The notes under the pieces were generated by a model. It did no database searches. It saw only the letters and a list, made by a program, of their open reading frames with translations, and was not told the DNA's origin. This document shows positions 10,165 to 31,018 of a stretch of 32,000 bases of DNA, one piece after another. The stretch's first letter is position 1. Every line of letters starts with the position of its first letter. Origin of the DNA: an uncultured bacterium (GTDB lineage Bacteria; Margulisbacteria; WOR-1; CAVSGV01); NCBI GenBank assembly GCA_963699255.1, contig OY969425.1:1200001-1232000 (forward strand), in the 5' to 3' direction. The position numbers were made by a program, and so were the translations under genes.

Positions 10165-10650
10165 TTAAAAGCCCTCTTTATTGATATCTTCCCTCTTATG
10201 CTGGCCTCTCGATAGATAGTCATATATAGTGCCCTTTATCATCTCATCCGCGTGTCCGCTGAAGAAATCGTTCAGAGTGTTGATGATCTGCTCTTCCTTA
10301 AAAGGCTTCGTGATATATCCGGCCACCGATTCGGTCGCGGCGGTGAGCAGCTTCTCATCATCTTCATATGCGGTGACAAAAATGACGCCTATCTTGCTCC
10401 CGTATTTGTCGCGTACTTTTTCCACGAACTCCAGTCCGTCCATTTCCGGCATTTTTATATCAGAGAGGATGCATCCGACACGGGGGCTACCGAGGCCGAA
10501 AAAACTTTTTTTCTTCTCAAGGGCCTGGAAAGCTTCCTTCGCGGAATTCACTATGGCAACTTCGTATTTTCCGGTCTTTTTGACGGTGTCCGCGATCTCT
10601 TTCGCGTACTCCGGCTCATCCTCAACGACCAGAACAAAGGGTTTTGCCAT
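10165..10650 (-). CDS. Single-domain CheY-like response regulator receiver with a short C-terminal extension and no DNA-binding domain
   Basis: 161 aa. VLVVEDEP forms the acidic pocket, ILSDIKMPEMDG carries the phospho-acceptor Asp, and ITKPF carries the conserved Lys. Confidence 0.85.
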   Translation of the reverse strand: MAKPFVLVVEDEPEYAKEIADTVKKTGKYEVAIVNSAKEAFQALEKKKSFFGLGSPRVGCILSDIKMPEMDGLEFVEKVRDKYGSKIGVIFVTAYEDDEKLLTAATESVAGYITKPFKEEQIINTLNDFFSGHADEMIKGTIYDYLSRGQHKREDINKEGF

Positions 10651-10660
10651 ATATCTTAAA

Positions 10661-13362: not shown

Positions 13363-13391
13363 TTGACGGCGAAGGCCATTCTTGATAAAAT
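13363..13391 (+). promoter_or_regulatory. Candidate operon promoter TTGACG-N17-(TGA)TAAAAT
   Basis: TTGACG is at 13363-13368 and TAAAAT at 13386-13391, preceded by TGA. The track's TTG start at 13382 lies inside this promoter. Confidence 0.45.
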
Positions 13392-13417
13392 CAGGTCAGT
13401 ATTCTCTCTCCAAATAT

Positions 13418-16727: not shown

Positions 16728-17260
16728 CACAACAGCCGGATGTGAGGATCGATTCCGCGGTGCCGCGAGAAAAGTTCAACGGCAAAAGGGTCTATTTGAA
16801 CCTAGACCTTTGCTGCGGCTGCAGAAGCTGCGCCGCGGCCTGCGCGTACGGGCACCACATTCAGTCCCTTTTGGGCCACGGCAAGCTCGAGACTGAAGCA
16901 GAACTTCCTCTGCACTGCCTGCACTGCGATCAGCCGGCCTGCGCCGCTGCATGCCCTAATGAAGCAATGAAGAAAATGGACGATGGGATCGTCCTGAGAA
17001 GCCATTTTAAATGCGTCGGCTGCGGCTCATGCGCCGTAGCCTGCCCCTTCGGAGTGATCCATCCGGACCTCACAAAGCATATGGTCCCTAAATGCGATCT
17101 CTGCATCGATCGCCTGGCCGAAAGCGAGATACCCAGATGCGTGCAGAGCTGCACATCCGGAGCCCTTACTTTTGAGGAGATAGATGAGCAGGTAGTGGAT
17201 GAGAAAAAGAACCTGGCTTCTGTAAGGATACTTTCCAATTTTATCGGAAGGAGGAGATGA
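16724..17260 (+). CDS. HycB / DmsB-type multi-[4Fe-4S] ferredoxin subunit
   Basis: 178 aa with four Cys groups: CCGCRSCAAAC, CLHCDQPACAAACP, CVGCGSCAVACP and CDLC...CVQSC. Confidence 0.85.
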   Translation: MTQQPDVRIDSAVPREKFNGKRVYLNLDLCCGCRSCAAACAYGHHIQSLLGHGKLETEAELPLHCLHCDQPACAAACPNEAMKKMDDGIVLRSHFKCVGCGSCAVACPFGVIHPDLTKHMVPKCDLCIDRLAESEIPRCVQSCTSGALTFEEIDEQVVDEKKNLASVRILSNFIGRRR

Positions 17261-17940
17261 TGATGGCAAAACCTGAAGAACACATGGATAAAGCGTGCGT
17301 CTGTCTTCGGGAAGGCAAGTTCCGCGACGCGATAAAAGAATATCAGGAGGCGCTCCGGATAGACCCGAACAATGCGATAGCCCACAGATCTTTGGGGAGC
17401 TTATATTACCGTCAAACTATGCTCGATGAATCGATCGCCGAATTCAACAAGGCTATCCAGTTGAATCCGAACTATTCTGACGCTCATTACGAACTGGGGG
17501 TCTCGCTTTACAGGAGAGGAAGACTTGAGGAAGCGGTCAGATCGTTCGATGAGGCGCTGAGGATCAATCCTAATTTTCTGATCGCGAGATACTGGTTGGG
17601 TCTCTCATATTATTATATCGGAAAGCTTAATGAGGCAATAAAGGAATTCGATGCGGTAATAGACAAAGGGCCGAAGATAGAGATAGCCCATTACCACCTC
17701 GGCTCGGCTCTGGAGCAGGAAGGGAAGTTCGATGAAGCTATCCGGCAGTTCGAGGAGTTCGTAAAGGAGGTCCCGGAAAGCGCGGCGGCATACTATCACC
17801 TGGGGGTGAATTACTACAATAAGGGCGACGTCGAAAAGGCGATCGTAAATTTTAAAAAAGCGGTCGAGATCGATCCTTCGGATGAGCGGGCGAGAAAAAA
17901 TCTTTCAATGCTGGAGGACCTAAGGAGCCAGTTTTTTTAG
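17257..17940 (+). CDS. TPR-repeat protein (about 6 repeats) embedded in the hydrogenase operon
   Basis: 227 aa. TPR signatures recur, for example AIKEYQEALRIDPNNAIAH, AIAEFNKAIQLNPNYSDAHY and AVRSFDEALRINPNF. The ATG overlaps the upstream TGA, and the stop abuts the next ATG. Confidence 0.85.
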   Translation: MMMAKPEEHMDKACVCLREGKFRDAIKEYQEALRIDPNNAIAHRSLGSLYYRQTMLDESIAEFNKAIQLNPNYSDAHYELGVSLYRRGRLEEAVRSFDEALRINPNFLIARYWLGLSYYYIGKLNEAIKEFDAVIDKGPKIEIAHYHLGSALEQEGKFDEAIRQFEEFVKEVPESAAAYYHLGVNYYNKGDVEKAIVNFKKAVEIDPSDERARKNLSMLEDLRSQFF

Positions 17941-18870
17941 ATGATTGAATTCCTTTATTACATTTTGGTAATGCCGGGTTTTCTCTTCACGGCTTTCACA
18001 GGTCTGCTATCTACCTGGGTTGACCGCAAAGTGACCGCCAGATTGCAGTGGAGGCAGGGCCCTCCTATATTTCAACCGTTCGCGGATATCCTCAAACTGC
18101 TCGGTAAGGAAATAATGATCCCTGAAGGAGCCTCAAAGCTGGTCTTCCTGTCCGCGCCCCTCATCGGAATTGCGGCTGTAACGCTGGTTTCAACTATGTT
18201 ATGGATATTGAATATAAATATATATGGAAGTTTTGTCGGAGACCTTATCGTTATATATTACATGCTGATGATCCCATCGCTTGCCCTGATCATCGGCGGG
18301 TCGGCTTCAAGGAATCCGTTCTCGGCGATCGGAGCAAGCCGTGAAATGAAGCTTATCCTTGCTTATGAACTCCCTTTCATTATCGCGATAGCAACCGTCA
18401 TCGCGAGAACAGGTTCGATAATCATGGGAGATATTATCGGCTATCAATCCATGCACGGAATGATGATCGGGAGCTTCTCGGGCATCATCGCCTTTTTTGT
18501 GTCCCTGCTTGTGGTACAGGCAAAGCTGGGGTTCGTGCCTTTTGATGCATCGGAAGCCGAACAGGAAATAATGGCCGGCACTCTCCTCGAATACAGCGGC
18601 GCGCCGCTCGCGGCCTTCAAACTGACAAAGGCGATGCTTCTGTTCACTCTGCCGGTGCTGCTTATAACCCTGTTCCTTGGCGGGATCGATACCTATTCGC
18701 TTGCGGGCGCTCTCTGGTTCGTCTTAAAGTATTTCGTGATCCTGACGCTGATCATACTCATCAAGAACACCAATCCGAGGATCAGGATAGATCAGGCGGT
18801 CCGCTTTTTCTGGGGCCCGGTGACCGTTCTGGCCGTTATCGGATTCGTTCTCGCTATGATAGGAAGGTAA
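17941..18870 (+). CDS. Membrane subunit of group 4 [NiFe]-hydrogenase, NuoH / HycD / MbhM-like
   Basis: 309 aa and polytopic. The N-terminal WVDRKVTARLQWRQGPPIFQPFADILKLLGKE is the NuoH-family signature. Confidence 0.9.
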   Translation: MIEFLYYILVMPGFLFTAFTGLLSTWVDRKVTARLQWRQGPPIFQPFADILKLLGKEIMIPEGASKLVFLSAPLIGIAAVTLVSTMLWILNINIYGSFVGDLIVIYYMLMIPSLALIIGGSASRNPFSAIGASREMKLILAYELPFIIAIATVIARTGSIIMGDIIGYQSMHGMMIGSFSGIIAFFVSLLVVQAKLGFVPFDASEAEQEIMAGTLLEYSGAPLAAFKLTKAMLLFTLPVLLITLFLGGIDTYSLAGALWFVLKYFVILTLIILIKNTNPRIRIDQAVRFFWGPVTVLAVIGFVLAMIGR

Positions 18871-18871
18871 A

Positions 18872-19288
18872 ATGGCGGATCTTTATAAATGGGGATTGAA
18901 AAAATCTCCCTGGGTTTTTCACCTGGGCGCTTCGGCGTGCAATAACTGCGACATAGAGATTCTGGACACGCTCACGCCGAGATTCGACGTGGAGAGGTTC
19001 GGGATAACGCTCGTCGGCTCCCCCAGGCACGCGGATATCCTGGTCGTTTCCGGTATAGTGAACCGCCAATCCATTGAACGGTTCAGGAAGGTCTATGATT
19101 CCGTGCCGAAGCCGAAGGCCGTTGTCGCCATCGGGGTCTGTGCTTGCACCGCGGACATGTTCCGCGACAGCTATAATTTCGTTAAGCCCGTGGATGAGAT
19201 AATACCGGTGGATGTTTACGTGCCCGGATGCCCGCCCAAGCCGGAGGCGATAATATCGGGTATAATAAAGGCTCTGGAGAAAATATAG
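18872..19288 (+). CDS. [NiFe]-hydrogenase small subunit, NuoB / HycG / MbhJ-like
   Basis: 138 aa. Cluster ligands are SACNNCDIEIL, GVCACTADMF and PGCPPKPEA. An AGGAAGG RBS lies upstream. Confidence 0.9.
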   Translation: MADLYKWGLKKSPWVFHLGASACNNCDIEILDTLTPRFDVERFGITLVGSPRHADILVVSGIVNRQSIERFRKVYDSVPKPKAVVAIGVCACTADMFRDSYNFVKPVDEIIPVDVYVPGCPPKPEAIISGIIKALEKI

Positions 19289-19740
19289 TGAACGTATCAG
19301 AAAATATCAAGAACAAGTTCAAAGACAAAGTCGAGATCTTTGTGAAATCAAAGAAAAGGACATATGTCAATGTTGCTAGAGATGACGCCAAGGACATCGT
19401 CCGCTACATATTCAGCAACATGGGTGCAAGGTTCTCGATAGCCACGGCGATCGATACCCGTCTTGGAGTAGAGATCATTTACCATATGGCTTTTGATAAG
19501 GACGACATGATCGTTTCGGTAAAGACCCTGGTAGCCAAACCGGAGCTTGAGATGCCCACTTTCACGGACATCATTCCGGCAACCGAGTGGATCGAGAGAG
19601 AGATACACGAAATGTTCGGAGTTGTTTTCATCGGCCATCCGAGGCTCGAGAGACTCTTGCTTCCCGACGACTGGGAAGAAGGCGTATATCCCTTCCGGAA
19701 GAAAACGTTCGAATCCGAAAAGGAGAATCCAGAAAAATAA
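19288..19740 (+). CDS. NuoC / MbhK-like hydrogenase subunit
   Basis: I prefer the GTG at 19288, which overlaps the upstream TAG by 1 nt and has GGAGA 7 nt upstream. The motif ATEWIEREIHEMFGVVFIGHP is NuoC-type. The track start at 19228 lies inside the small-subunit gene. Confidence 0.8.
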   Translation: MNVSENIKNKFKDKVEIFVKSKKRTYVNVARDDAKDIVRYIFSNMGARFSIATAIDTRLGVEIIYHMAFDKDDMIVSVKTLVAKPELEMPTFTDIIPATEWIEREIHEMFGVVFIGHPRLERLLLPDDWEEGVYPFRKKTFESEKENPEK

Positions 19741-19742
19741 CC

Positions 19743-20918
19743 ATGGCAAAAGAAAATCTTATACCGATAGGGCCTTTTCATCCGCTTCTTGAGGAGCCGG
19801 AATACTTCAAGTTCTATGTGGAAGGGGAAAAAGTGGTCGACGCGGACGTGAGGATCGGCTACAACCACAGAGGGATCGAAAAGCTTGCCGAGTCAAAGAC
19901 TTACGAACAGGATGTCTTCCTTGTTGAGAGGATATGCGGGATATGCTCGACCTCCCATCCTTTTGCCTTTGTACAGGCGGCCGAGGACGTCTCCGGCATC
20001 GAAGTACCGGAAAGGGCGCAGTATATCAGGACGATAATAGGAGAGCTTGAGAGGATCCACAGCCACCTGCTCTGGGTAGGCCTGGCTGCACATTTCATCG
20101 GCTACAACACGGTTTTCATGTGGGCATGGAAATACCGCGAACCGGTGCTTGATATATTTGAAGTTGTTTCAGGCAATCGCAACCATTACGGCATGTTCAA
20201 GGTTGGAGGTGTGAGAAGGGACATATTTGAGAAGGACATTCCGGGACTGCTGAAAGCCGTTGATGACGTCGAGAAATTCTGTTCGATGCTCGTTAAAGCA
20301 GTGATGGATGATCCGGTCATCCGGGCCAGGACGAAGGGTATCGGCATTTTGAAAAAGAAGGACGCCGCCGATCTTTGCGTGGTCGGGCCGGTCGCCCGTG
20401 CATCAGGGATCGAGATCGACATCAGAAAAGACCATCCATATGCGGCTTACGACAAGGTCTGTTTTGACAAGGTCGTCATGAAGGATGGGGATGTGTTCTC
20501 CAAGACAGCTGTAAGGCTACTTGAAACCCTCCAATCGGTGAACATAATCAGGCAGTGCTTAAAAAGCATGCCGCAGGGGCCTATTGATGCGGATATAAGA
20601 GAGATAGGCACAGGCGAAGGAATAGGACAGCATGAAGCGCCGCGAGGCGAAGTGATACACTATATCAGGTCCAATGGCTCCAATTATCCCGAGAGGCATA
20701 AGATACGCGCGCCTTCTTTCATGAACGTTCCCTCGTTCAAGAAAACCGTTATCGGCGAGTCGATCGCGGACGCGGCGCTGATAACCGCCGCGGTCGATCC
20801 CTGCTACTGCTGCACGGAGAGGATGGTCGTCGTCGACCGTGAAACGAACAGGACGCTTAAGACCGGTGAAGAGCTTGTCAGGCTCTGCCAGGAAAAAACG
20901 GAGAAAATGATGAAATGA
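19743..20918 (+). CDS. Group 4 [NiFe]-hydrogenase large (catalytic) subunit, NuoD / HycE C-terminal / MbhL-like
   Basis: The likely start is the ATG at 19743 (MAKENLIPIGPFHP). The N-terminal Ni-Fe ligand motif RICGICSTSH and the C-terminal DPCYCCTER motif are both intact. About 30 residues follow the C-terminal motif, which looks like a protease-cleavable extension. The track's 19587 start lies inside the upstream gene. Confidence 0.9.
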   Translation: MAKENLIPIGPFHPLLEEPEYFKFYVEGEKVVDADVRIGYNHRGIEKLAESKTYEQDVFLVERICGICSTSHPFAFVQAAEDVSGIEVPERAQYIRTIIGELERIHSHLLWVGLAAHFIGYNTVFMWAWKYREPVLDIFEVVSGNRNHYGMFKVGGVRRDIFEKDIPGLLKAVDDVEKFCSMLVKAVMDDPVIRARTKGIGILKKKDAADLCVVGPVARASGIEIDIRKDHPYAAYDKVCFDKVVMKDGDVFSKTAVRLLETLQSVNIIRQCLKSMPQGPIDADIREIGTGEGIGQHEAPRGEVIHYIRSNGSNYPERHKIRAPSFMNVPSFKKTVIGESIADAALITAAVDPCYCCTERMVVVDRETNRTLKTGEELVRLCQEKTEKMMK

Positions 20919-22693
20919 ACATACTGCTTTACACTATAGCAATGCCGATAGTGTCTTCTTTACTATGCTTTTTCTCAAAGCGCTCGTCGCCATGGATAGC
21001 TCTTGTTATCTCCGCGGCAGAGATATTGCTTGCAGTAAGGATATTCTTTTTCGGAAACGCTATCTCCACCCTTTACTTTCACGCCTACGTACTTAACTCC
21101 GGCATTTTCCTGGCCGCTTCGGCCTTTTCATTGCTGATCGTCCTCTACTCTCTCAAGTTCATGGAAGGTGACGAACGACTAGGGGAATATTACGCATATA
21201 TACTGATAACTATGGGCGCGGCGGCAGGAGCCTTATTCGCGAATGATTATTTCACTCTCCTTTCATTCTGGGGGGTCCTCGGGGCGACCTTATATATGTT
21301 GATCGGGATCGCCGGAGCGAGCGCGGCTTCCTCTGCGAAAAAAACTTTCATCATAGTCGGCGGGTCGGATGCCGTGATGATATTCGGGATAGGCACGGTA
21401 TGGCTAATGACAAGAAGCCTTCAGATAGGGATTTTCCCGATAGCCATGTGCGGGGTCCTCCCTGTGATCGCCTTCCTCTCTCTTTTGTCCAGTGCTCTTG
21501 CAAAAGCTGGAGCCATGCCTTTCCATAGCTGGCTGCCGGATTGCGCCGAGGCGGCTCCTGTTCCGGTAACCGCTTATCTTCCGGCTTCTCTGGATAAACT
21601 TTTAGGCATATATCTCCTGTTCAGGTTGTGTACGGACATATTCCAGGTCACCCCTAATTCTCCTGTGTCGATACTTCTGCTTGTTATCGGTTCCTTTACC
21701 ATTATTGCCGGCGTAATGGCGGCACTTGTACAACACAACATGAGAAAGCTGCTTTCGTTCCACGCGATATCGCAGGTGGGTTACATGGTGCTGGGCATAG
21801 GGACGGCGCTTCCGATCGGGATGGCGGGCGCACTTTTTCACATGTTGAACCATACAATATATAAAAGCTGCCTTTTCCTGACAAGCGGATCGGTAGAGAA
21901 AGAAATGGGAACGGGAGAGCTTGATGAACTGGGCGGCGCGGCAGTATCTATGCCGATTACTTTCGTCAGTGCGGCGGTCGCCGCACTTTCCATCTCCGGG
22001 ATACCACCTTTCAACGGCTTCTTCTCTAAGTGGATGATATACCAGGGCATTATCGAGCTTTCCGGAACAAGCAGGCTCTGGATAATATGGCTGTGCGCTG
22101 CGATGTTCGGGAGCGCCCTGACGCTCGCTAGTTTCATAAAGCTGATCCACGCCGTTTATCTCGGGCAGGGCTCTGGCAAAAAACCTGAACCAAGAGAAGC
22201 CCCCTGGCAGATGTGGCTGCCGCCGGCGATACTCGCGTCACTCTGCGTAGTGTTCGGCATTTTTGCTTTTTCAGTTCCTCTCCCCTATTTCGTACTTCCT
22301 TCAGTAAAAGGGATAATTTACAGCGGATACTGGAACCCGGTTCTTGCGACTGCATTGATATTGATAGGTCTGCTGATAGGGCTTCTGGTCTATTGGCTTG
22401 GAAAGGAAAGAACGACTCTTACCAGCCCCGTCTATATCGGCGGCGAAGAAATTGAAGAAACCAGGGTTAAAGTTTCCGGGACCGGATTTTATAATACCAT
22501 AAGGGATTACGGACCCCTTGACGTTATTTATCGTTTCGCGGAAAGAAAGCTATTCGATATTTATGAGCTCGGCTCAAAGCTTGTTTCCATGCTCTATGAT
22601 GTGCTTGGTTTTCTCCATAACGGGCTTTTGCACACTTATCTGGCATGGATGTTCCTGGGGTTCGCGCTGATTATGCTGTTCATTATCTTTTAG
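20915..22693 (+). CDS. Antiporter-like membrane subunit, NuoL / MrpA N-terminal / MbhH-like
   Basis: 592 aa and polytopic. Proton-pump family motifs include WLPDCAEAAPVPVTAYL, HAISQVGYMVLGIG and GIPPFNGFFSKW. Confidence 0.85.
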   Translation: MNILLYTIAMPIVSSLLCFFSKRSSPWIALVISAAEILLAVRIFFFGNAISTLYFHAYVLNSGIFLAASAFSLLIVLYSLKFMEGDERLGEYYAYILITMGAAAGALFANDYFTLLSFWGVLGATLYMLIGIAGASAASSAKKTFIIVGGSDAVMIFGIGTVWLMTRSLQIGIFPIAMCGVLPVIAFLSLLSSALAKAGAMPFHSWLPDCAEAAPVPVTAYLPASLDKLLGIYLLFRLCTDIFQVTPNSPVSILLLVIGSFTIIAGVMAALVQHNMRKLLSFHAISQVGYMVLGIGTALPIGMAGALFHMLNHTIYKSCLFLTSGSVEKEMGTGELDELGGAAVSMPITFVSAAVAALSISGIPPFNGFFSKWMIYQGIIELSGTSRLWIIWLCAAMFGSALTLASFIKLIHAVYLGQGSGKKPEPREAPWQMWLPPAILASLCVVFGIFAFSVPLPYFVLPSVKGIIYSGYWNPVLATALILIGLLIGLLVYWLGKERTTLTSPVYIGGEEIEETRVKVSGTGFYNTIRDYGPLDVIYRFAERKLFDIYELGSKLVSMLYDVLGFLHNGLLHTYLAWMFLGFALIMLFIIF

Positions 22694-22700
22694 GAGTGAC

Positions 22701-23213
22701 ATGATAGAATTATACCTTTTGATGGTTTTTATAATAATTGCGGCGATGATCGCCGTTGAAAACCACACCTTGCTTTCGTCAATAATTTCACTTGGAGCCG
22801 TGGGGTTAGGGCTGTGCATAATATTCTTGATCCTCGGCGCTCCCGAACTTGCGATAACGCAGCTCGTTGTCGAGATACTCGTTCTTATTGTGCTTATACG
22901 CGCCACCATTGCCGTGTCGGTCCCGGAAACCTACAAGGGAAGGGAATTCCTGTCATACATGATGGCGATAGGTTTCATACTCCTGTTCATGGCCGGCTCG
23001 TTCTTCGCGTTCGGCAATCTTCCGGAATTCGGTGCTCCCATAATGAAATCCGCGAAAATATACATTGAAAATAGCGCCGGAGCTGCCGCGGAAAATCTTG
23101 TGACGACAGTTGCATTGAAATTCAGGAGGTTCGACTCTATTGGAATGGTGGCGATCATCTTTACTTCTGTCATAGGAACACTGGTCATCTTAAGGCAAAA
23201 AGGAAGGAAATAA
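22701..23213 (+). CDS. MrpA C-terminal-like subunit (MbhD/DUF4040-type segment plus MnhB-type segment)
   Basis: 170 aa. The N-terminal hydrophobic segment contains APELAITQLVVEILV. The segment NLVTTVALKFRRFDSIGMVAIIFTSVIG resembles the MnhB-domain motif. An AGGAG RBS lies upstream. Confidence 0.65.
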   Translation: MIELYLLMVFIIIAAMIAVENHTLLSSIISLGAVGLGLCIIFLILGAPELAITQLVVEILVLIVLIRATIAVSVPETYKGREFLSYMMAIGFILLFMAGSFFAFGNLPEFGAPIMKSAKIYIENSAGAAAENLVTTVALKFRRFDSIGMVAIIFTSVIGTLVILRQKGRK

Positions 23214-23217
23214 TTCA

Positions 23218-23607
23218 ATGAGCGGTATGGGTTTGATAGTGAAAACGGTCACAAGGGTTACTGTAGGTGTCATATTTCTTTTCGGATGCTACATCTCCGC
23301 GCAAGGTCATACCACCCTTGGCGGCGGACTTGCAGGAGGGGTCGTTATAGCTCTTGCTTTCATATTATATGTTCTTGCCTACGGCAGGACCCATGCGGAA
23401 GAAAGGCTCGGCAGGCAGCTTGCTTTGATTTTTATGGAACTTGGAGCTATCTTTTTTCTGCTGCTCTCGTTCTTCGGCTGCAAGCCGGAAGGATGTTATG
23501 AATGCATATTATGCAATCTTGCGATATCGGTGATGTCCGGCGCCGGACTTTTTGTCGTTTTCTTGAACTTTACCGCATTCAAGGCAAAGATAAGGGAGGA
23601 AAAATAA
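23218..23607 (+). CDS. MrpB / MnhB-like antiporter subunit
   Basis: 129 aa. GHTTLGGGLAGGVVIAL resembles the GHxxPGGGFxGG motif of MrpB. Confidence 0.65.
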   Translation: MSGMGLIVKTVTRVTVGVIFLFGCYISAQGHTTLGGGLAGGVVIALAFILYVLAYGRTHAEERLGRQLALIFMELGAIFFLLLSFFGCKPEGCYECILCNLAISVMSGAGLFVVFLNFTAFKAKIREEK

Positions 23608-23903
23608 TGGCGGCATATCTCTTGTGTGTCGTTCTGTTCCTTATCGGAGTATATTGCGTCGCTGTCAAAAAGAACCTGATAAAGATCATAGTCGGCCTTG
23701 TGATAATGGAATACTCAATGAACCTTTTGCTTGTGGTCGTTGGCTACCGCGGAGGCGCTGTGGACCCGCTTGCTCAGGCTTTCGCGCTGGCAATGATCGC
23801 GGTAGGACTTGCGACCACAATAACAATGTCCTCGATCGCAATGAGGATATATGACAGACTTGGCACATTTGACATTACAAAGATAGGCAAGCTGAAAGGA
23901 TAA
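23607..23903 (+). CDS. MrpC / NuoK-like antiporter subunit
   Basis: I prefer the ATG at 23607 (MAAYLLCVVLFLIGVYCV...), which overlaps the upstream TAA by 1 nt and has a GGGAGG RBS. It has three TM helices and the NuoK-like IVGLVIMEYSMNLLLV segment. The track start at 23502 lies inside the previous gene. Confidence 0.75.
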   Translation: MAAYLLCVVLFLIGVYCVAVKKNLIKIIVGLVIMEYSMNLLLVVVGYRGGAVDPLAQAFALAMIAVGLATTITMSSIAMRIYDRLGTFDITKIGKLKG

Positions 23904-23905
23904 GC

Positions 23906-25393
23906 ATGATCAACGTTTTGCCGATATTCATTTTACTTCCGCTCGGCGCAGGCTTCCTTATGCTTATGGCATATAGGACCGGAAAGAATTTGCCGGATTT
24001 TATCGGAAATGCCGCGACTTTCTTCCTGGCAGCGATGGCACTTTCACTTTACTTTTTCCGTCCGTTCGGAGCCGTGATGATATTTAAGACAGGATATTTT
24101 CCTGCCGGTATAGGGATCAATCTGGTCCTGGACGGATTAAGCCATTTGCTCCTTCTGATCGTTAATCTTGTGGCTTTCTTTATTACATTTTATTCTGTTT
24201 CATACATGGATAAATATTCAAAAAAAGAAAAATATTATTCACTTCTCATGCTAATGGTCGCCGGCATGAATGGCGCGATCCTGACCGGAGATCTTATCAG
24301 CTTTTTCGTCTTCATGGAACTGGCCGCTATTTCCGGGAGCGTGCTGGTGGCTTTCGGCACGGAGTATGAAGAGCTGGAGGCTTCCTTTAAATACCTTGTC
24401 ATGGGATCAGTGGCGTCCATCTTCATTCTCTTTGCCGTCATCATGATATATTCCATTACAGGTACCACGAACATGGCGGATATCGCGCAGTGTTTCCCCG
24501 GCAACGCCAACTATGCCAAGATGCTGATAACGCTCCTCTTTTTGATAGGATTCGGCACAAAGGCCGCCATTATCCCTTTCCATGCATGGCTTCCGGACGC
24601 ACACCCCGCAGCCCCCGCTCCGATCTCCGCGATGCTTTCCGGTGTCCTTATTAAGGCACTGGGTATTTATGCGCTGGTAAGGACCTTCTTTAATGTGCTC
24701 GGGATGACTCATCAGCTATCCAATATTTTCATGATGCTTGGCGTAATATCCTTGCTTGCCGGAGTAATAATGGCCCTTGGACAGTGGGATCTTAAGAGGC
24801 TTCTAGCTTATCACAGCATTTCGCAGGTCGGATATATAATTCTCGGTATCGGGCTCGCGACGCCTCTCGGAGTTCTGGGCGGCCTTTTCCACCTTTTCAA
24901 CCATGCCATCTTCAAGTCGCTCCTCTTCCTGACAGCCGGCTCCGTGGAGCACTCCACTGGAACAAGGCAGCTCAAGGAGCTTGGCGGACTGCGCCAGAAG
25001 ATGCCTGTTACGTCGAATGCGTCTCTCGCGGCATCCCTTGCTATCTCAGGACTACCGCCGTTCAACGGCTTCTGGAGCAAGCTTTTTATCATCATTGCCT
25101 GCATACAGGCCGGAAAGCTATGGTTCGCGGCAGCGGCAGTGATCGGGAGCATTTTAACGCTTGCCTCATTCATGAAGGTGCAAAAATACGTTTTCTTCGA
25201 GAAGCTGCCGGCTCAGCTGCGCGATACCAAAGAATCTCCCTGGTTCATGGGCGCTCCCATGGTGATCCTTGCTTTGCTCTGTCTTGCCGTCGGGCTTTTC
25301 TTTCCCGTTATCGTGAACTTTCTGATAAATCCGGCCGTTGTGTCGGTGTCGATCGGCACCGGATACGGCCAGCTTGTCCTGGGAGGCAATTAA
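23906..25393 (+). CDS. MrpD / NuoM-N-like antiporter subunit
   Basis: 495 aa. Motifs include WLPDAHPAAPAPISAMLSGVLIK, HSISQVGYIILGIG and GLPPFNGFWSK. Confidence 0.85.
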   Translation: MINVLPIFILLPLGAGFLMLMAYRTGKNLPDFIGNAATFFLAAMALSLYFFRPFGAVMIFKTGYFPAGIGINLVLDGLSHLLLLIVNLVAFFITFYSVSYMDKYSKKEKYYSLLMLMVAGMNGAILTGDLISFFVFMELAAISGSVLVAFGTEYEELEASFKYLVMGSVASIFILFAVIMIYSITGTTNMADIAQCFPGNANYAKMLITLLFLIGFGTKAAIIPFHAWLPDAHPAAPAPISAMLSGVLIKALGIYALVRTFFNVLGMTHQLSNIFMMLGVISLLAGVIMALGQWDLKRLLAYHSISQVGYIILGIGLATPLGVLGGLFHLFNHAIFKSLLFLTAGSVEHSTGTRQLKELGGLRQKMPVTSNASLAASLAISGLPPFNGFWSKLFIIIACIQAGKLWFAAAAVIGSILTLASFMKVQKYVFFEKLPAQLRDTKESPWFMGAPMVILALLCLAVGLFFPVIVNFLINPAVVSVSIGTGYGQLVLGGN

Positions 25394-25876
25394 ATGGTCA
25401 AGAGAGGGAGTCAAACGCTGGGTTTTGTGATCGCTTTCCTGGTATGGCTTATGCTTACCTGGAAGATCGATCCTATGAACATCGCGCTGGGTTCGATCTT
25501 TTCGCTTCTGGCAGCGATCTTCTTCGGGGATCTCCTCACTGTCACGCCGGAGCGCGCTCTTCACCCTGTGAGATATTTTTGGCTTCTTTATTACCTGCCG
25601 ATCTTCCTGTGGCAGATGGTTAAATCGAACATCGACGTAGCTTACAGGGTCCTGCATCCGAAACTCCCGATAAATCCCGGCTTGATCAAAGTTAAGATCA
25701 ACCTTAATAGCGACGTTTCCAAGGCGCTTCTCGCGAATTCCATCTCCCTTACTCCCGGAAGCACGACCGTTGACATAATCGGGGACCAGATATACATTCA
25801 CTGCATAGATGTGGACCGTCCGGTCAGGGAAGAAGTTGAAATGTTCGAGAAAATAATCGCAAGGATACTTGAATGA
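25394..25876 (+). CDS. MrpE / MnhE-like antiporter subunit
   Basis: 160 aa with an N-terminal TM pair. SISLTPGSTTVDI is typical of MnhE. The gene sits in the canonical D-E-F-G order. Confidence 0.7.
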   Translation: MVKRGSQTLGFVIAFLVWLMLTWKIDPMNIALGSIFSLLAAIFFGDLLTVTPERALHPVRYFWLLYYLPIFLWQMVKSNIDVAYRVLHPKLPINPGLIKVKINLNSDVSKALLANSISLTPGSTTVDIIGDQIYIHCIDVDRPVREEVEMFEKIIARILE

Positions 25877-26130
25877 TAAATATACTGATATATATTTTAA
25901 CGCTCTGCTGTTTCATATGTCTTTACAGGATATTTAAGAGCCCGACGCCGGCCGACCGCGCGGTCGCGGTGGATATTCTCGGGATAGTGGTGATAGGCTT
26001 CTGCTCGCTTCTGTCCGTTTCGATCCACAAGGGTTTCTTGATGGATATCGCGATCGCCTGGACGCTGCAGAGCTATATAGCGGTCCTTGCCATCGCGAAA
26101 TACCTGGAGGGGAAGCGCTTCGATGAATGA
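25873..26130 (+). CDS. MrpF / MnhF-like antiporter subunit
   Basis: 85 aa with three TM helices and the motif PTPADRAVAVDILGIVVIG. The start overlaps the upstream stop (ATGA). Confidence 0.7.
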   Translation: MINILIYILTLCCFICLYRIFKSPTPADRAVAVDILGIVVIGFCSLLSVSIHKGFLMDIAIAWTLQSYIAVLAIAKYLEGKRFDE

Positions 26131-26464
26131 AATGATCGGATACTTTTTTATTACCGTGGGAGTGCTGTTCAATCTGTTCGGATGCATAGGGTTGATCAGG
26201 CTGCCGGATATTTACAACCGCCTTCAGGCGGCGGCGAAATGCGCCACGCTGGGGACCTGCGGGACTCTACTGGGTGTTTTTATCATTAACGGTTTTGGCG
26301 CGACGGGCATGAAAGCGCTGCTGGCGATGATCTTCGTCCTTTTGACCGCCCCGACGGCGGCGCAGGCGCTGTCAAAAGCAGCGTATAAGTCAGGCATAAA
26401 AGCCTGGAAGAAAAACGGTAAGGAAGAGTCAATAGAGGAGAAAGAACTGCGTGAAGCTCCCTAA
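26123..26464 (+). CDS. MrpG / MnhG-like antiporter subunit
   Basis: The likely start is the ATG at 26123 (MNEMIGYFFITVGVLFNLFGCIGLIRLPDIYNRLQAAAK), which carries the MnhG signature. The ATG at 26132 is an alternative. It overlaps the end of the MrpF-like gene. Confidence 0.7.
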   Translation: MNEMIGYFFITVGVLFNLFGCIGLIRLPDIYNRLQAAAKCATLGTCGTLLGVFIINGFGATGMKALLAMIFVLLTAPTAAQALSKAAYKSGIKAWKKNGKEESIEEKELREAP

Positions 26465-27050
26465 AATAAGAGAACTCGGAGAAGCGATAAAAGCCTTGAT
26501 GCTTGGCCCTTACACATCAGGGTTCCCTTTCAAGCAGCCGGTGATCCCCGACGGCTTCCGCGGCAAGCCCCAGTTCTACCAGGATGACTGCGTAGGATGC
26601 CTCGCGTGCGTCGAGGTCTGCCCCGCCCGCGCCATCGAATATGTTGACGACAAAAAGACAAAGCTAAGGACCCTGACCCATCACCAGGATATCTGCATCT
26701 ACTGCCAGCAATGCGAGCGCGCCTGCATAACCGAAAAAGGGATAATGCTCACGAAAGAATACGATCTTGCGACATTTGACAGAAAGAGATCGTTCACTCA
26801 GTCGATAAAAGCGCTTGTCATCTGCGAGCACTGCGGCGGCATTGTTGCTCCTCTCGACCACCTGAAATTCCTCGCAAAGAAAGTCGGCCACCTTCTGTAC
26901 TCGAACCCCACCCTTCTCCTTGCAAGGCATGATGAGCTGAAGCTGCTCGAAGCCGATCGGCCCTCAAGCAGCCCTCACAAAAGAGCCGACCATCTCAAAA
27001 TGCTCTGCCCCAACTGCAGGAGAGAGATAATACTGAAGGAGCAATGGTGA
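26451..27050 (+). CDS. 2x[4Fe-4S] ferredoxin subunit, NuoI / HycF-like, with a C-terminal CxxC...CxxC extension
   Basis: 199 aa with a GTG start. The cluster motifs are CVGCLACVEVCP and CIYCQQCERAC. The C-terminal CEHCGG...CPNCRRE resembles the HycF tail. Confidence 0.8.
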   Translation: MKLPKIRELGEAIKALMLGPYTSGFPFKQPVIPDGFRGKPQFYQDDCVGCLACVEVCPARAIEYVDDKKTKLRTLTHHQDICIYCQQCERACITEKGIMLTKEYDLATFDRKRSFTQSIKALVICEHCGGIVAPLDHLKFLAKKVGHLLYSNPTLLLARHDELKLLEADRPSSSPHKRADHLKMLCPNCRREIILKEQW

Positions 27051-27051: not shown

Positions 27052-27387
27052 ATGCACGAGCTCGGATTAGCAGAAGACATATTAAGAAAAATAAAGGAAG
27101 AAGCAAGGATCAGAGGGCTTTCGAAGGTTTCTTATGCTAAAATAAGGATCGGGGAAACGCTGGTGACCGACCAGCCGGAGCTTGTTGAGTTGTTCTCAAT
27201 GATCTCAGCAGGGACCCCGGCGGAAGGAACCAAACTTGATATAGTTATCTCCCCGCTGAAATCCGTTTGCGGAAACTGCAAAAAGGAGTTCAACCCGAAG
27301 GTCATCAGATTTGACTGCCCCGGCTGCGGATCAAACAGCATAAACATTGCTTCGGGCAAAGAGCTTGTAATAGAGGAAATAAAATAA
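27052..27387 (+). CDS. hypA: [NiFe]-hydrogenase nickel-insertion metallochaperone HypA
   Basis: 111 aa. It has the N-terminal MHE Ni-binding motif and the zinc site CGNC...CPGC. It starts 2 nt after the upstream stop. Confidence 0.85.
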   Translation: MHELGLAEDILRKIKEEARIRGLSKVSYAKIRIGETLVTDQPELVELFSMISAGTPAEGTKLDIVISPLKSVCGNCKKEFNPKVIRFDCPGCGSNSINIASGKELVIEEIK

Positions 27388-28886
27388 TGAATCCATTAGC
27401 TCAACTTGAAACCTCGGACTGGATAAAAGAACGGGTAAAACCGCAGGAAAATTCCCGCTACATGGATCACGGGATGGATTTCATAAGCGAATATGAGATA
27501 TCCCGCCATCTTGAAGGCAACCGTAACCCGTCCAGGCAGCAGATAAGGGATATCATACAGAAAGCTTTAACTATCGAGCGGCTGGAGCCGCAAGAGACCG
27601 CTGCTTTGCTGAATGTGACCGATCCTGATCTGTGGCAGGAAATATTCAATGCAGCGGGAAAGATAAAAAAAGCCGTATATGACAACAGGATAGTCACGTT
27701 CGCGCCTCTTTACTGCGGAAGCTACTGCGTCAACAACTGCCTCTACTGCGCTTTCCGCAAAAGCAACCATGAAGAGCTCAGGCGCGTCCTAAGTATGGAT
27801 GAGATAAAGCGCGAAACAGAGGTTCTGGCGGGAGAGATAGGCCATAAGCGCCTTATTGCGGTGTTCGGCGAACATCCCGCGACGGACGCTGGATATATGG
27901 TGGCGGTCCTGCGGTCAATTTACAGCGTAAAGGTCCCCACAAAGACAGGATATTCAAATATAAGACGAGTGAACATCAACGGCGCCCCGCTTTCCATTGA
28001 AGAATTCAGGATGATAAAAGTTGCGGGCATCGGGACATATCAGATATTCCAGGAAACATACCATCACGTGACTTACGCGAAGGTGCATCCGATAGAAACA
28101 GTGAAAGCGGATTACGCATGGCGCCTGTACGCTCTCCACAGGGCTCAGGAAGCCGGAATTGATGATGTAGCCATAGGGGTCTTGTTCGGGCTTTATGACT
28201 GGAAGTTCGAGGTTATGGGACTGCTTTATCATGCCATTGATCTTGAAAAACACTTCGGCGTCGGGCCGCATACGATATCTTTCCCAAGGCTTGAGCCTGC
28301 GGCCAACACGCCCTTGGCCGAGAATTCGAAATATAAAGTATCCGATGAAGATTTCAAGAAGCTGGTCGCGGTTCTTAGGCTGTCTATCCCCTACGCTGGC
28401 ATGATATTGACGGCAAGGGAAAGCGCGGAGATCAGGCGGCAGGTGATACCGCTGGGCATCACGCAGATCGACGCTTCAACAAAGATAGGCATAGGCGCAT
28501 ATTCTGACCGGTATAGCGAACAGGAGCTTAAGAACCAGCAGTTCCTTATCGGTGATCCCAGGTCGCTTGATGAGGTCATACGCGAACTTGCCGATACCGG
28601 CTATATCACAAGCTTCTGTACCGCCGGATACAGATGTTCAAGGACCGGGAAGTGCATAATGGACCTTCTCAAGTCCGGCAAGGAGAGATGGTTCTGCAAA
28701 GTGAACGCCGTCCTGACTTACAAGGAATGGCTCAATGATTTCGCGTCTCCCGAGACGAAAGCCAAGGGTGAGGCGATCATAAAAAAAGAAATTGAAGAGA
28801 TAAAAACACAAGTCCCCACTATTTATCCGCAGTTCGCTGCTATGTATGACAGGATCCAGAAGGGCGAGAGAGATCTTTACTTCTAG
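27387..28886 (+). CDS. HydG-type radical SAM enzyme (tyrosine-lyase family), full length, with a variant C-terminal Cys motif
   Basis: 499 aa. Hallmarks include LEPQETAALLNV, FAPLYCGSYCVNNCLYCAFRKSN (CX3CX2C), RRVNINGAP, GIGTYQIFQETYH, GVGPHTISFPRLEP and SIPYAGMILTARES. The C-terminus ends GERDLYF, as I recall it from characterised HydG proteins. The C-terminal cluster region reads FCTAGYRCSRTGKCIMDLLKSGKERWFC. The ATG overlaps the hypA TAA (TAATG). Confidence 0.85.
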   Translation: MNPLAQLETSDWIKERVKPQENSRYMDHGMDFISEYEISRHLEGNRNPSRQQIRDIIQKALTIERLEPQETAALLNVTDPDLWQEIFNAAGKIKKAVYDNRIVTFAPLYCGSYCVNNCLYCAFRKSNHEELRRVLSMDEIKRETEVLAGEIGHKRLIAVFGEHPATDAGYMVAVLRSIYSVKVPTKTGYSNIRRVNINGAPLSIEEFRMIKVAGIGTYQIFQETYHHVTYAKVHPIETVKADYAWRLYALHRAQEAGIDDVAIGVLFGLYDWKFEVMGLLYHAIDLEKHFGVGPHTISFPRLEPAANTPLAENSKYKVSDEDFKKLVAVLRLSIPYAGMILTARESAEIRRQVIPLGITQIDASTKIGIGAYSDRYSEQELKNQQFLIGDPRSLDEVIRELADTGYITSFCTAGYRCSRTGKCIMDLLKSGKERWFCKVNAVLTYKEWLNDFASPETKAKGEAIIKKEIEEIKTQVPTIYPQFAAMYDRIQKGERDLYF

Positions 28887-29944: not shown

Positions 29945-31018
29945 ATGCCAATAATAATCATCGGCGGAGGGATAATAGGCGGCGCGATAGCGTATTACGC
30001 GTCGAAAACCGGCGTCAAAGACATAGTACTGTTTGAAAAGGAAAAGCTGCTGGGCACAGGCGCTACTCAATATTGCTCCGGCGGAGTAAGATATCAGTTC
30101 TCGACCCCCATCAATGTCAAGTTCTCCATAGCCGCGTTCCCGGAGCTTGAGAAGTTCGACATCGGGATGCACAGATACGGATACCTCATCCTGGACATGA
30201 AAGACGATTCGATGTCGAGGGTAAAAATGCAGAACGACCTGGGGGTAAAGAGCGAATATCTGACCCCGGCGCAGCTTAAAGAACGATTCCCGTATATCAA
30301 TATTGAAGGAGTTAAGAGCGCTTCTTTCCACAAGCTTGACGGGATTGCCGAACCGGCGAAACTCATGGAGATCTATGAAAAAGGCGCGAAGGCTAACGGG
30401 GTAAAGGTCAGATATGGGGTTAAGGTTAAGAGATTGGTCAAGGATGGGGATAGAGTTATTGGTCTGGAAACAAATGAAGGGATTATCAAGGCTGGTAAGG
30501 TCATCCTAGCCGCCGGACCTCAATCCCCCGAACTCGCAAAGACCATCGGGTTGGACATCAAGATCGTTCCGAGAAGAAAATACATACTGGCCGTCACGGG
30601 ATTCGACTTTGATTTTCCCGTCGTCATGGAAGTTCCTACGGGCTGGTACATAAAGAAGGAAGGCGCGGACGCCCTAGTTGGAATGTCCGGCAAGGAAGAG
30701 AAGGCGGACTTCGAGAAAAAAGAAGAAAGCGTTACCGAAACCCTTGAGGCATCGCTGAAGAGATTCCCGCTGACCGAGAGCTCGAGCATAAAGAAAGTGA
30801 ACAGCACCATGAGCGATGAGACCCCGGATAAGCACGCGGTGATCGATGACCACACGCCGGGGCTTATAATCGCAACGGGATTCTCCGGGCACGGTTTCAT
30901 GCACTCGCCTGCTGTCGGCAGGATCGTGACAAACCTGATAAAGAATGAAAAGCCGGAACTGGATGTTTCTGAGCTTAAACTTCATCGAAGCCACATCAAA
31001 GAACCGATAGCGATCTGA
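29945..31018 (+). CDS. FAD-dependent oxidoreductase, DAO family (sarcosine/glycine oxidase-like)
   Basis: 357 aa. The N-terminal IIIIGGGIIGGAIAYY is a GxGxxG dinucleotide fold, followed by LFEK. GFSGHGFMHSPAVG lies near the C-terminus. Confidence 0.8.
   Translation: MPIIIIGGGIIGGAIAYYASKTGVKDIVLFEKEKLLGTGATQYCSGGVRYQFSTPINVKFSIAAFPELEKFDIGMHRYGYLILDMKDDSMSRVKMQNDLGVKSEYLTPAQLKERFPYINIEGVKSASFHKLDGIAEPAKLMEIYEKGAKANGVKVRYGVKVKRLVKDGDRVIGLETNEGIIKAGKVILAAGPQSPELAKTIGLDIKIVPRRKYILAVTGFDFDFPVVMEVPTGWYIKKEGADALVGMSGKEEKADFEKKEESVTETLEASLKRFPLTESSSIKKVNSTMSDETPDKHAVIDDHTPGLIIATGFSGHGFMHSPAVGRIVTNLIKNEKPELDVSELKLHRSHIKEPIAI

Follow-up and report, generated by a model that had tools for sequence, protein, structure and literature searches.

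The window (the whole 32-kb stretch of DNA that was analysed) carries a group-4 [NiFe]-hydrogenase operon, with a gene encoding a fusion of HypC and HydE ahead of it and a hypA-hydG pair at its end (Table 1). The genes of the operon are tightly packed or overlapping, and encode in order AsrA-like and AsrB-like proteins, a short molybdopterin oxidoreductase, a 4Fe-4S protein and a TPR protein, followed by NuoH-, NuoB- and NuoC-like subunits, the [NiFe] large subunit (19743-20918), NuoL/MrpA-, MrpB-, MrpD-, MrpE-, MrpF- and MrpG-like subunits and, finally, a NuoI/HycF-like ferredoxin (26451-27050). Genuine NiFe ligands are present in the large subunit, within both the L1 motif (RICGICSTSH, conforming to RxCGxCxxxH) and the L2 motif (DPCYCCTER, conforming to DPCxxCxxH/R). 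A scan for promoters and terminators returned signals that were not enough above background to define the ends of the operon. The same subunit set was described in Saganbacteria RX5A for a group-4 [NiFe] hydrogenase of the Mrp-Mbh type, an operon type referred to as 'enigmatic' in that organism (Matheus Carnevali et al. 2019, PMC6349859), both having the hydrogenase core as well as subunits resembling Mrp antiporters, a molybdopterin oxidoreductase that defies classification, a protein like CooF, AsrA and AsrB. Flanking hypC::hydE, hypA and hydG genes go unmentioned in that description, and the KEGG tables in its supplements contain zero Hyp or HydG rows.

Table 1. Features of the hydG locus, with positions numbered from the first letter of the window
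Feature	Position	Strand	Basis
hypC::hydE fusion, 422 aa	11930..13198	+	TIGR03956 223.3 bits, TIGR00074 49.4 bits
group-4 [NiFe]-hydrogenase operon	13382..27050	+	profile matches, gene spacing
hypA, nickel metallochaperone, 111 aa	27052..27387	+	PF01155 88.3 bits
TAATG, overlap of hypA stop and hydG start, putative translational coupling	27385..27389	+	sequence
hydG, radical-SAM tyrosine lyase / CO + CN- synthase family, CTAG subfamily, 499 aa	27387..28886	+	TIGR03955, 4WCX
radical-SAM cluster motif C114-x3-C118-x2-C121 (CVNNCLYC)	27726..27749	+	aligned with 4WCX motif
His282, equivalent of TiHydG His265, predicted dangler-Fe ligand	28230..28232	+	LLYHAID / MLYHANH alignment with 4WCX
auxiliary-cluster motif C411-TAG-YR-C417-SRTGK-C423-x13-C437 (CX5CX5CX13C)	28617..28697	+	alignment to 4WCX, 4RTB
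DAO-family FAD amine oxidase (sarcosine / N-methyl-Trp / ThiO-like)	29945..31018	+	PF01266 184.5 bits

The HypA protein has the N-terminal MHE nickel-binding motif (MHELG...) and a zinc site comprising C73, C76, C89 and C92, and scores 75.7 bits against TIGR00100, below the cut-off of 88.1. An earlier note on this DNA had placed the stop codon of hypA over the start codon of hydG, and this was borne out by the two open reading frames, which overlap by 1 nt, with the sequence GAGGA lying ~9 nt upstream of the hydG start. The 1-nt overlap is repeated at related loci L005 (hypA 9666-10001, hydG 10001-11467) and L175 (hypA 19346-19681, hydG 19681-21177). It is hidden in the public gene call of the query HydG (P0001, 474 aa) because the start of that version is Met26, the 499-aa form being backed by full-length homologs of 74-90% identity.

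Membership of the HydG family is clear. The query protein scores 444.7 bits against TIGR03955 (cut-off 312.15), with residues 29-499 matching model positions 8-470 of 470, and was aligned with the HydG proteins of T. italicus (4WCX, E = 7e-134) and C. hydrogenoformans (4RTB, E = 7e-103). Since the match to 4WCX spans the full length, starting at residue 29 and ending with the C-terminal residue, the HydG fold is beyond doubt, and the whole-length resemblance previously drawn by eye down to the terminal GERDLYF, which is identical in the two proteins, was confirmed from residue 29 onwards. The query has in common with both structures the radical-SAM CX3CX2C motif, a TIM barrel with BATS domain, a C-terminal cluster domain with at least three cysteines, and the conserved histidine that binds the fifth 'dangler' Fe in TiHydG (PMC8162317). 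Indeed, of the 106 HydG columns that are near-invariant across 148 other HydGs (conservation of 97% or more), the query clade keeps 102, and from the conserved residues the gene is predicted to encode a catalytically intact HydG that converts tyrosine via dehydroglycine to CO and CN-. Candidate specificity-determining residues in the clade were rejected, as G418S is the sole clade-wide change among the 106 columns and is therefore too little for claiming new chemistry.

The sole HydE-like gene in the window is the copy fused to hypC. Its radical-SAM domain (CVNDCEYC) is like that of the T. maritima HydE structures (3CIW, 5FEW, 7O1O), corresponding to residues 17-344 of TmHydE (7O1O) with 198 bits, as against 84.5 for PylB and 43 for BioB; the score against the HydE family model falls just short of the cut-off of 254.6 bits, although no other family comes close to HydE. 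The fusion protein differs from those structures in having an N-terminal HypC domain and in having no C-terminal accessory-cluster cysteines. The HypC domain (MCYTIPGKV) resembles the Fe(CN)2CO carriers HypC, HybG and HupF in its MC-x-x-PG motif, in keeping the essential Cys2, in its OB-fold length and in its location with hypA at a [NiFe] operon; it differs from them in being covalently joined to a HydE-type enzyme, in having no HypD encoded nearby, and in the replacement by Gln43 of the conserved histidine (H51 in E. coli, H45 in T. kodakarensis). The HypC::HydE family has at least 120 full-length members, and this histidine is replaced by glutamine in 116 of 120 members among the matches listed.

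The linkage of hydG to [NiFe] genes recurs in relatives, and at least 11 contigs were matched by length as carrying both HydG and the HypC::HydE fusion. In the window and in L003, L005 and L175 alike, the group-4 operon's NuoI-like gene is followed by a hypA-hydG pair, and in L175 the operon has hypC::hydE first and hypA-hydG last. A nickel ECF transporter, hydG, hypC::hydE and a group-4 hydrogenase stand in a row at L119, whilst L092 combines hypC::hydE and hydG with a group-3b hydrogenase and hycI, and L089 has hypC::hydE, hypA, group-3b genes and hycI, with hydG located 1 kb further. The L174 locus, from Saganbacteria, has a two-gene hypC::hydE-hydG module, and at L173 a hydG with the canonical cluster motif faces hypA in convergent orientation where an operon of the group-4 type ends, beside CbiM and Zip. 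The fusion gene is located elsewhere, apart from hydG, in L087. A metagenome scan revealed three more members of the close HydG clade among the matches listed, and the listed matches from a scan of genome contigs with the query HydG were all of 66% identity or less.

Homologs of HydF and HydA were found neither in the 32-kb window nor in 11 related loci. Within about 10 kb of hydG, hydF or hydA occurs in 0 of 12 [NiFe]- or fusion-linked loci compared with 98 of 153 other HydG loci, a difference for which Fisher's p = 1e-5 overstates the independence of the data because the 12 linked loci represent two or three clades. When loci of at least 20 kb are considered the corresponding values are 0/9 and 40/54. 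Genes for HypD, HypE and HypF were likewise absent from the window and from the flanks of the related loci.

The function of the query, as read from gene context, is probably (with a likelihood of roughly 55%) that of a bona fide HydG recruited, together with HypC::HydE, to maturation of the [NiFe] cofactor. To our knowledge, HydG is the one enzyme known for anaerobic production of metal-bound CO and CN- and has so far been linked exclusively to [FeFe]-hydrogenases, and we know of no enzyme that has been assigned to supplying [NiFe]-hydrogenases with their CO ligand under anaerobic conditions. Because it is built into [NiFe] operons with hypC::hydE, HydG may supply this ligand. A treatment from 2025 regards the CO ligand's origin in anaerobic [NiFe]-hydrogenases as unresolved, and leaves radical-SAM and tyrosine routes undiscussed (PMC12134894).

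In the recruitment scheme, HydG would convert dehydroglycine to CO and CN- at its C-terminal [4Fe-4S] cluster and dangler Fe, and would either build an Fe-CO/CN unit or merely free CO and CN-. The HydE domain of the fusion would then process the Fe-CO/CN unit as HydE does during H-cluster synthesis, the HypC domain would capture a mononuclear Fe-carbonyl/cyanide fragment via Cys2 and pass it to the [NiFe] large subunit, and HypA would then insert nickel. Direct hand-over to HypC is implied by the fusion, and the overall flow from HydG through HydE and HypC to the large subunit is presumed, as is the chemistry that would turn Fe(CO)2(CN) into Fe(CN)2(CO). The latter step bears on the recruitment reading adversely, since the known product of HydG is Fe(CO)2(CN) and the [NiFe] site requires Fe(CN)2(CO). 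A bolder and distinctly more tentative version is that HydG and HypC::HydE could form a tyrosine-based radical-SAM supply of the [NiFe] Fe-CO/CN unit in anaerobes of the Margulisbacteria/Saganbacteria type, replacing the anaerobic CO source and possibly HypD, HypE and HypF, and amounting to a third, hybrid maturation pathway whose [FeFe]-type chemistry would serve a [NiFe] enzyme. The proposed role, that of an enzyme dedicated to supplying CO ligand and encoded alongside the hydrogenase, is like that of the aerobic CO synthase HypX. The two are unrelated in fold and chemistry, HypX acting by O2-compatible decarbonylation of formyl-THF or formyl-CoA, whereas HydG, which is O2-sensitive, cleaves tyrosine by radical-SAM chemistry and yields CN- as well.

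What gives the arrangement its significance is that hydG is coupled to hypA, and HydE is fused to HypC, within [NiFe] operons of a group reported to be without [FeFe]-hydrogenases. Two or three genes plus the hydrogenase offer a concrete, clonable system for probing a possible supply of the [NiFe] cofactor by radical-SAM chemistry, and automatic annotation as '[FeFe] hydrogenase maturase HydG/HydE' should not be taken as proof that an [FeFe]-hydrogenase is present. A literature search, the scope of which took in few subscription journals, found nothing relevant on HydG or HydE in [NiFe] maturation or on a HypC-HydE fusion, and an earlier description is possible.

The principal alternative to recruitment is that the query is an ordinary H-cluster maturase, working for HydF and an [FeFe]-hydrogenase whose genes would lie elsewhere in the genome, with the hypA neighbourhood reflecting no more than clustering of accessory genes. 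The protein is nearly indistinguishable from H-cluster HydGs, and on that score an ordinary role fits equally well: the equivalog cut-off is passed, identity to HydGs of classic hydGEF/hydA operons is 66-69%, the near-invariant positions are conserved and the match between the HydE domain and TmHydE is a full-length one. The query is set apart from hydGEF-type HydG by its coupling to hypA inside a [NiFe] operon, and it is gene context that renders the ordinary role unlikely, if still worth serious consideration. The HydE domain is fused to a [NiFe] chaperone in at least 120 proteins, the linkage recurs with two [NiFe] groups, a nickel transporter and two unrelated HydG clades, and hydF and hydA are missing from the linked loci to the extent already given. 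The taxonomic record points both ways, in that [FeFe]-hydrogenases were reported as not found in Saganbacteria, members of which bear the module, whereas Riflemargulisbacteria, which are relatives of these lineages, possess [FeFe]-hydrogenase (PMC6349859). The names of homologs of about 70% identity are the sole basis on which the window's own lineage is placed as related to Margulisbacteria/Saganbacteria.

It is considerably less probable that HydG serves as a generator of diffusible CO (and CN-) for a conventional HypCDEF system, as an anaerobic analogue of HypX, with the fusion being unrelated or accessory. HydG does free CO and CN- in vitro, and at the loci themselves hydG adjoins hypA while hypC::hydE may be situated elsewhere, as in L087. 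Moreover, the anaerobic source of CO is unknown and nanomolar CO is enough for maturation (PMC12134894). Set against this, L092, L119 and L174 have hypC::hydE next to or overlapping hydG, an arrangement suggestive of a coupled pair, a direct transfer to HypC is implied by the fusion, and the hypD, hypE and hypF genes on which a conventional system would draw occur in none of the flanks examined.

Next, the auxiliary-cluster motif of the C-terminal domain was considered, since here the query differs from 4WCX and 4RTB, its middle cysteine being at +6 as opposed to +3 and an extra cysteine being present at +12. Alignment of the query (SFCTAGYRCSRTGKCIMDLLKSGKERWFCKVNA) with 4WCX (SYCTACYRMGRTGDRFMSFAKSGQIHNFCLPNA) and 4RTB (SFCTACYRKRRTGKTFMGLADRGQIKDFCTPDA) places C411 and C437 in register with the first and last cysteines of canonical CX2CX22C, with Gly414 in place of the +3 cysteine and new cysteines at +6 (C417) and +12 (C423). 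The earlier note had read CX5CX5CX13C at this site by eye, with a shifted register as the possible source of error; alignment to both structures upheld the reading, with canonical CX2CX22C absent and the register as first stated. Chance can be set aside as the origin of the motif, because it is invariant in 32/32 members of the query's own clade.

A very improbable interpretation of CX5CX5CX13C is that it marks a remodelled site, giving a different organometallic product, or serving a different acceptor, in the [NiFe]-linked copy. The motif is admittedly unlike that of every biochemically or structurally characterised HydG, G418S, which is private to the query clade, adjoins it, and the extra Cys423 could in principle be a fourth ligand. 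The distribution of the motif is nevertheless at odds with remodelling. Among the matches listed, CTAGYRC is carried by 120/120 closest homologs, including annotated HydGs of Thermodesulfovibrio, Caldanaerobacter and Thermoanaerobacter uzonensis; the T. yellowstonii protein, which is 66% identical to the query, is encoded in a cluster comprising hydA, TM1266-like, aspartase-like, hydG, hydF and hydE genes. CTAGYRC is also the commonest form in a survey of 165 distinct related HydGs, drawn from 175 loci. Within this sample the exact C-x5-C-x5-C-x13-C arrangement was found in 30 copies from loci that have hydF or hydA compared with 8 in a [NiFe] context, and a C-x5-C-x19-C form in 49 copies with hydF or hydA. 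Cysteine placement at +6 (or +20) accounts for the majority of relatives (143/165), most of them in hydGEF/hydA loci. Conversely, the [NiFe]-linked HydGs of Margulisbacteria and Saganbacteria at L089, L092, L173 and L174 have the canonical CTACYR...C motif, as do 119/120 relatives of such proteins among the matches listed. Motif and gene context therefore vary independently and, because the query clade is nested within CTAG-type HydGs of FeFe operons in a neighbour-joining tree, the motif is older than the [NiFe] association.

The motif is therefore no adaptation to the [NiFe] context, that possibility being rejected on the distribution and the tree, and the expectation that it would track with [NiFe]-linked copies fails on the ratio of 30 to 8. 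The remodelled site, which the earlier note was prepared to give up should the variant be common in ordinary [FeFe] operons, is given up here since it proved to be so; the accompanying suspicion, linking the protein to [NiFe] as opposed to [FeFe] biology, stands. From sequence comparison, CX5CX5CX13C is read as characteristic of one lineage, a large HydG subfamily whose predicted middle ligand sits at +6 (or +20) after a shift from +3 and whose cysteine at +12 is optional. Cysteines at +3 and at +6/+20 are mutually exclusive, and at least three cysteines are kept in 164/165 HydGs. Given that the +6/+20 placement is common to so many relatives, the C-terminal domain of the query very probably supplies three ligands to the auxiliary cluster. 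The textbook CX2CX22C is not universal and the position of the middle cluster ligand is flexible (+3, +6, +20), which bears on motif-based identification of HydG and on the design of mutagenesis.

Assignment of the query to thiamine biosynthesis, as a 2-iminoacetate synthase like ThiH, after the JGI annotation borne by many homologs and the ThiO-like appearance of the neighbouring DAO protein, is scarcely credible and was rejected on a TIGR02351 score (235.3 bits, residues 52-406 only) below the cut-off of 380, the protein having a complete HydG-specific C-terminal cluster domain of roughly 90 residues that is missing from ThiH, and thiamine genes being nowhere nearby in the 32-kb window. The best NCBIfam matches of the DAO-family oxidase itself are all below their respective cut-offs, and it is uncertain whether the protein is part of the HydG system. 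Copies of 79% identity adjoin hydG in L003 and L005, the gene being kept directly downstream in these relatives.

The hydG gene recurs, together with a hypC::hydE fusion gene, inside [NiFe]-hydrogenase operons that lack hydF. In the window, the fusion ORF sits ~180 nt upstream of a group-4 operon that starts with AsrA- and AsrB-like proteins, a short molybdopterin oxidoreductase, a ferredoxin and a TPR protein, proceeds through NuoH-, NuoB- and NuoC-like subunits to the [NiFe] large subunit, which carries genuine RICGICSTSH and DPCYCCTER motifs, and ends with Mrp-type antiporter subunits and a NuoI-like ferredoxin. The operon genes are tightly packed, with overlaps or few-base gaps, and continue directly into hypA-hydG. 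Saganbacteria RX5A has exactly this operon type, which was called 'enigmatic' (Matheus Carnevali et al. 2019, PMC6349859); HydG, HydE and Hyp genes are unmentioned in the text and supplements of that study. The short match of the molybdopterin-oxidoreductase subunit is in line with a published comment that this subunit is not classifiable as a formate dehydrogenase.

Coordinates of features in the window and, where named, in the collected hydG loci
Location	Position	Feature	Remarks
Window	551-2914, 4079-6142, 7416-9533	GH94 cellobiose/chitobiose-phosphorylase-like gene and two large sensor histidine kinases	upstream of hydrogenase region
Window	11930-13198	hypC::hydE fusion	HypC domain 11930-12160
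Window	13382-27050	group-4 [NiFe]-hydrogenase operon	
Window	15303-16727	molybdopterin-oxidoreductase subunit	474 aa; matches N-terminal third only of formate dehydrogenase alpha (model 1-227 of 672)
Window	27052-27387	hypA	PF01155, 88 bits
Window	27385-27389	TAATG	hypA stop/hydG start
Window	27387-28886	hydG	499 codons
Window	27387-27461	part of hydG omitted from public gene call P0001	75 nt
Window	28934-29869	ORF between hydG and DAO gene	311 aa; no Pfam/NCBIfam match
Window	29945-31018	DAO-family FAD amine oxidase	directly downstream of hydG
L003	11492-12562	DAO-family FAD amine oxidase	directly downstream of hydG
L005	11471-12541	DAO-family FAD amine oxidase	directly downstream of hydG
L089	11273-11506	truncated HypA, group-3b-linked	77-79 aa with L092; translation lacks zinc-binding CxxC pairs
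L092	6324-6563	truncated HypA, group-3b-linked	known from length and Pfam match only

The overlap of the hypA stop with the hydG start that had been read from the sequence was borne out by the ORF map and the raw sequence, the A of TAATG being common to both ORFs (a 1-nt overlap), with GAGGA ~9 nt upstream of the hydG ATG. The full-length HypA, with its MHE N-terminus and CxxC...CxxC zinc site, is by these sequence features genuine. The public gene call for the window HydG (P0001, 474 aa) starts at Met26, dropping 25 conserved N-terminal residues and the coupling with hypA; the 499-aa form is favoured because homologs are full length and the identical 1-nt overlap occurs in loci L005 and L175.

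[NiFe]-linked hydG loci
Locus	Arrangement
L175	hypC::hydE, whole group-4 operon, hypA and hydG in one compact block; HydG 78%, fusion 84% identical to the window's
L003, L005	operon terminates in hypA-hydG, as in the window
L119	NikM/CbiQ/CbiO-type nickel transporter, hydG, hypC::hydE, group-4 hydrogenase
L092	hypC::hydE overlaps hydG; then group-3b [NiFe]-hydrogenase and hycI
L089 (WOR-1, GCA_001771345.1)	hypC::hydE, hypA, group 3b, hycI; hydG 1 kb beyond
L173 (790-kb Margulisbacteria contig)	hydG convergent to hypA at end of same group-4 operon type, fusion at opposite end of operon; CbiM and Zip transporter adjoining
L174 (Saganbacteria, GCA_026387795.1)	two-gene module hypC::hydE-hydG alone

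For at least 11 more cases, contigs of identical length for the two proteins place HydG and the fusion together. The HydGs of L089, L092, L173 and L174 form a separate deep branch with the canonical CTACYR, as found also in 119 of the 120 relatives listed, and the fusion copies of these loci, 55-72% identical to the window's, belong to one conserved fusion family, indicating that two HydG lineages are paired with one fusion family and [NiFe] operons. The [NiFe] link of the window HydG is therefore supported by recurrent operon linkage, more strongly than could be seen from a single stretch. In the main rival explanation, which is less probable, HydG and HydE would be normal H-cluster maturases serving an [FeFe]-hydrogenase encoded elsewhere in the genome; the orthodox HydG sequence fits this equally well, and the recurrent linkage speaks against it. 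Neither hydF nor hydA occurs in any of the 12 distinct linked loci, whereas 98 of the 153 remaining HydG loci have at least one of them (Fisher p = 1e-5, which overstates independence because the linked loci come from only two or three clades); among loci 20 kb or longer, the counts are 0 of 9 linked versus 40 of 54 others.

The window protein scores 444.7 bits against the curated HydG equivalog model TIGR03955 (cut-off 312.15) and aligns end to end with the solved HydGs of T. italicus (4WCX, E = 7e-134) and C. hydrogenoformans (4RTB, E = 7e-103), down to the identical terminal GERDLYF, in agreement with the whole-length match to HydG that the earlier note had judged by eye. It contains eight Cys, four in the radical-SAM region and four in the auxiliary-cluster motif. 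In the alignment with 4WCX, His282 corresponds to the histidine with which TiHydG ligates its fifth, 'dangler' iron (PMC8162317), and of the 106 columns with 97% or higher conservation across 148 other HydGs, 102 are unchanged in the window HydG and its closest relatives, G418S being the only clade-wide change. These alignments show a HydG with the full set of hallmark residues, in which three ligands for the auxiliary cluster are very probably provided, and there is no sequence argument for altered chemistry. The proposed motif register, CX5CX5CX13C in place of CX2CX22C, was likewise right: the auxiliary-cluster segments align as SFCTAGYRCSRTGKCIMDLLKSGKERWFCKVNA (window) and SYCTACYRMGRTGDRFMSFAKSGQIHNFCLPNA (4WCX), with C411 and C437 retained, the +3 Cys replaced by Gly414 and extra Cys at +6 (C417) and +12 (C423).

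The distribution of this motif was surveyed in 175 loci from genomes and metagenomes, yielding 165 distinct HydGs, with neighbours identified by tblastn; the set is skewed towards relatives of the window HydG, so that counts do not represent family-wide frequencies.

Cys occupancy at positions 0, +3, +6, +12, +20 and +26 among 165 distinct HydGs
Pattern	Total	With hydF/hydA in locus	In [NiFe] context
C-C--C	77	49	0
C-CC-C (window)	43	30	8
C-C-CC	19	6	0
C---CC	5	3	0
CC---C (canonical)	20	10	4
C----C	1	0	0

Although the earlier note took the variant as a possible sign of a remodelled site with a different product or acceptor, this is not supported, since the motif is ordinary in HydGs of FeFe operons. 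It is not restricted to [NiFe]-linked copies, given the 30 beside hydF/hydA, nor does it track with them, as the canonical copies in four linked loci demonstrate. Indeed, CTAGYRC is present in all of the best 120 database homologs listed, including annotated HydGs of Thermodesulfovibrio, Caldanaerobacter and Thermoanaerobacter uzonensis; that of T. yellowstonii, 66% identical to the window's, lies in a textbook cluster of two Fe_hyd_lg_C genes, TM1266-like, aspartase-like, hydG, hydF and hydE. In a neighbour-joining tree the window clade is nested inside CTAG-type HydGs of FeFe operons, indicating that the motif is older than the present [NiFe] context. Within this sampling the motif is a common subfamily form, not special to the [NiFe] context. 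The textbook CX2CX22C is in the minority among the 165 relatives, at least three Cys of the motif are present in 164, and the +3 Cys never occurs together with a +6 or +20 Cys; on the simplest reading, the middle [4Fe-4S] ligand may occupy several positions in one loop (+3, or +6 and/or +20). The HydGs characterised to date are apparently all of the +3 type. Annotated HydGs of Caldanaerobacter and T. uzonensis (records P0072, P0082, P0111 and P0112) belong to the CTAG type, but that of T. italicus, whose structure is solved, to the CTAC type, and Thermoanaerobacteraceae may have two HydG paralogs or have undergone type exchange.

The fusion comprises a HypC domain (residues 1 to ~76; MCYTIPGKV; TIGR00074, 49 bits) followed by a HydE-type radical-SAM domain, which scores 223 bits against TIGR03956, just under the 254.6 cut-off, and matches T. 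maritima HydE over its full length at 198 bits, compared with 84.5 for PylB and 43 for BioB. The family has at least 120 full-length members (64-100% identity), those named among the matches listed being from Candidatus Margulisiibacteriota, Saganbacteria and WOR-1. Cys2 and CX3CX2C are kept in all 120 members listed, and the otherwise conserved histidine of HypC (H51 in E. coli, H45 in T. kodakarensis), which has been implicated in Fe/CO2 binding, is Gln in 116 of them (Gln43 in the window). The replacement of His by Gln with Cys2 invariant suggests that the HypC part of the fusion deals with its iron cargo in another way.

We consider it slightly better than even (probability roughly 0.55) that HydG/HydE chemistry has been redeployed to [NiFe] maturation through a functional link. 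By analogy with the established H-cluster pathway (PMC8162317), HydG would use two tyrosines to form an Fe(II)(CO)2(CN)(Cys) unit and the HydE domain of the fusion would activate it; rather than dimerising en route to HydF, the mononuclear fragment would be caught by Cys2 in the HypC domain and passed to the large subunit, with nickel insertion by HypA as the last step. The stoichiometry of this route does not yet balance, with 2 CO and 1 CN made where 1 CO and 2 CN are needed. In a weaker version, HydG would do no more than provide a conventional HypCD scaffold with CO (and CN-). Radical-SAM enzymes and tyrosine are not mentioned in a 2025 paper on the anaerobic CO-ligand source of [NiFe]-hydrogenases (PMC12134894), and full-text literature covering few subscription journals yielded no description of HydG/HydE in [NiFe] maturation or of a HypC-HydE fusion, which is absence of evidence only. 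The linkage of hydG with hypC::hydE makes this long-standing question directly testable.

The neighbourhood is partly syntenic, since GH94 also lies upstream of the fusion in L175, and the 311-aa ORF looks like a lineage-specific insertion, as any gene at that position is lacking in L003, L005 and L175. HydGs of DPANN archaea (P0291, P0307, P0308 and P0331, from Undinarchaeota, Micrarchaeota, Altiarchaeota and one 'archaeon') share 60-63% identity with the canonical-motif Margulisbacteria/Saganbacteria clade, a similarity that suggests HydG transfer between these groups. The DAO-family oxidase is conserved in the window clade (79% identity), its best matches, none of which reaches its cut-off, being N-methyl-Trp oxidase, sarcosine oxidase and ThiO glycine oxidase. 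The product of ThiO is dehydroglycine, the intermediate that HydG and ThiH derive from tyrosine, and a functional link between the oxidase and HydG is possible.
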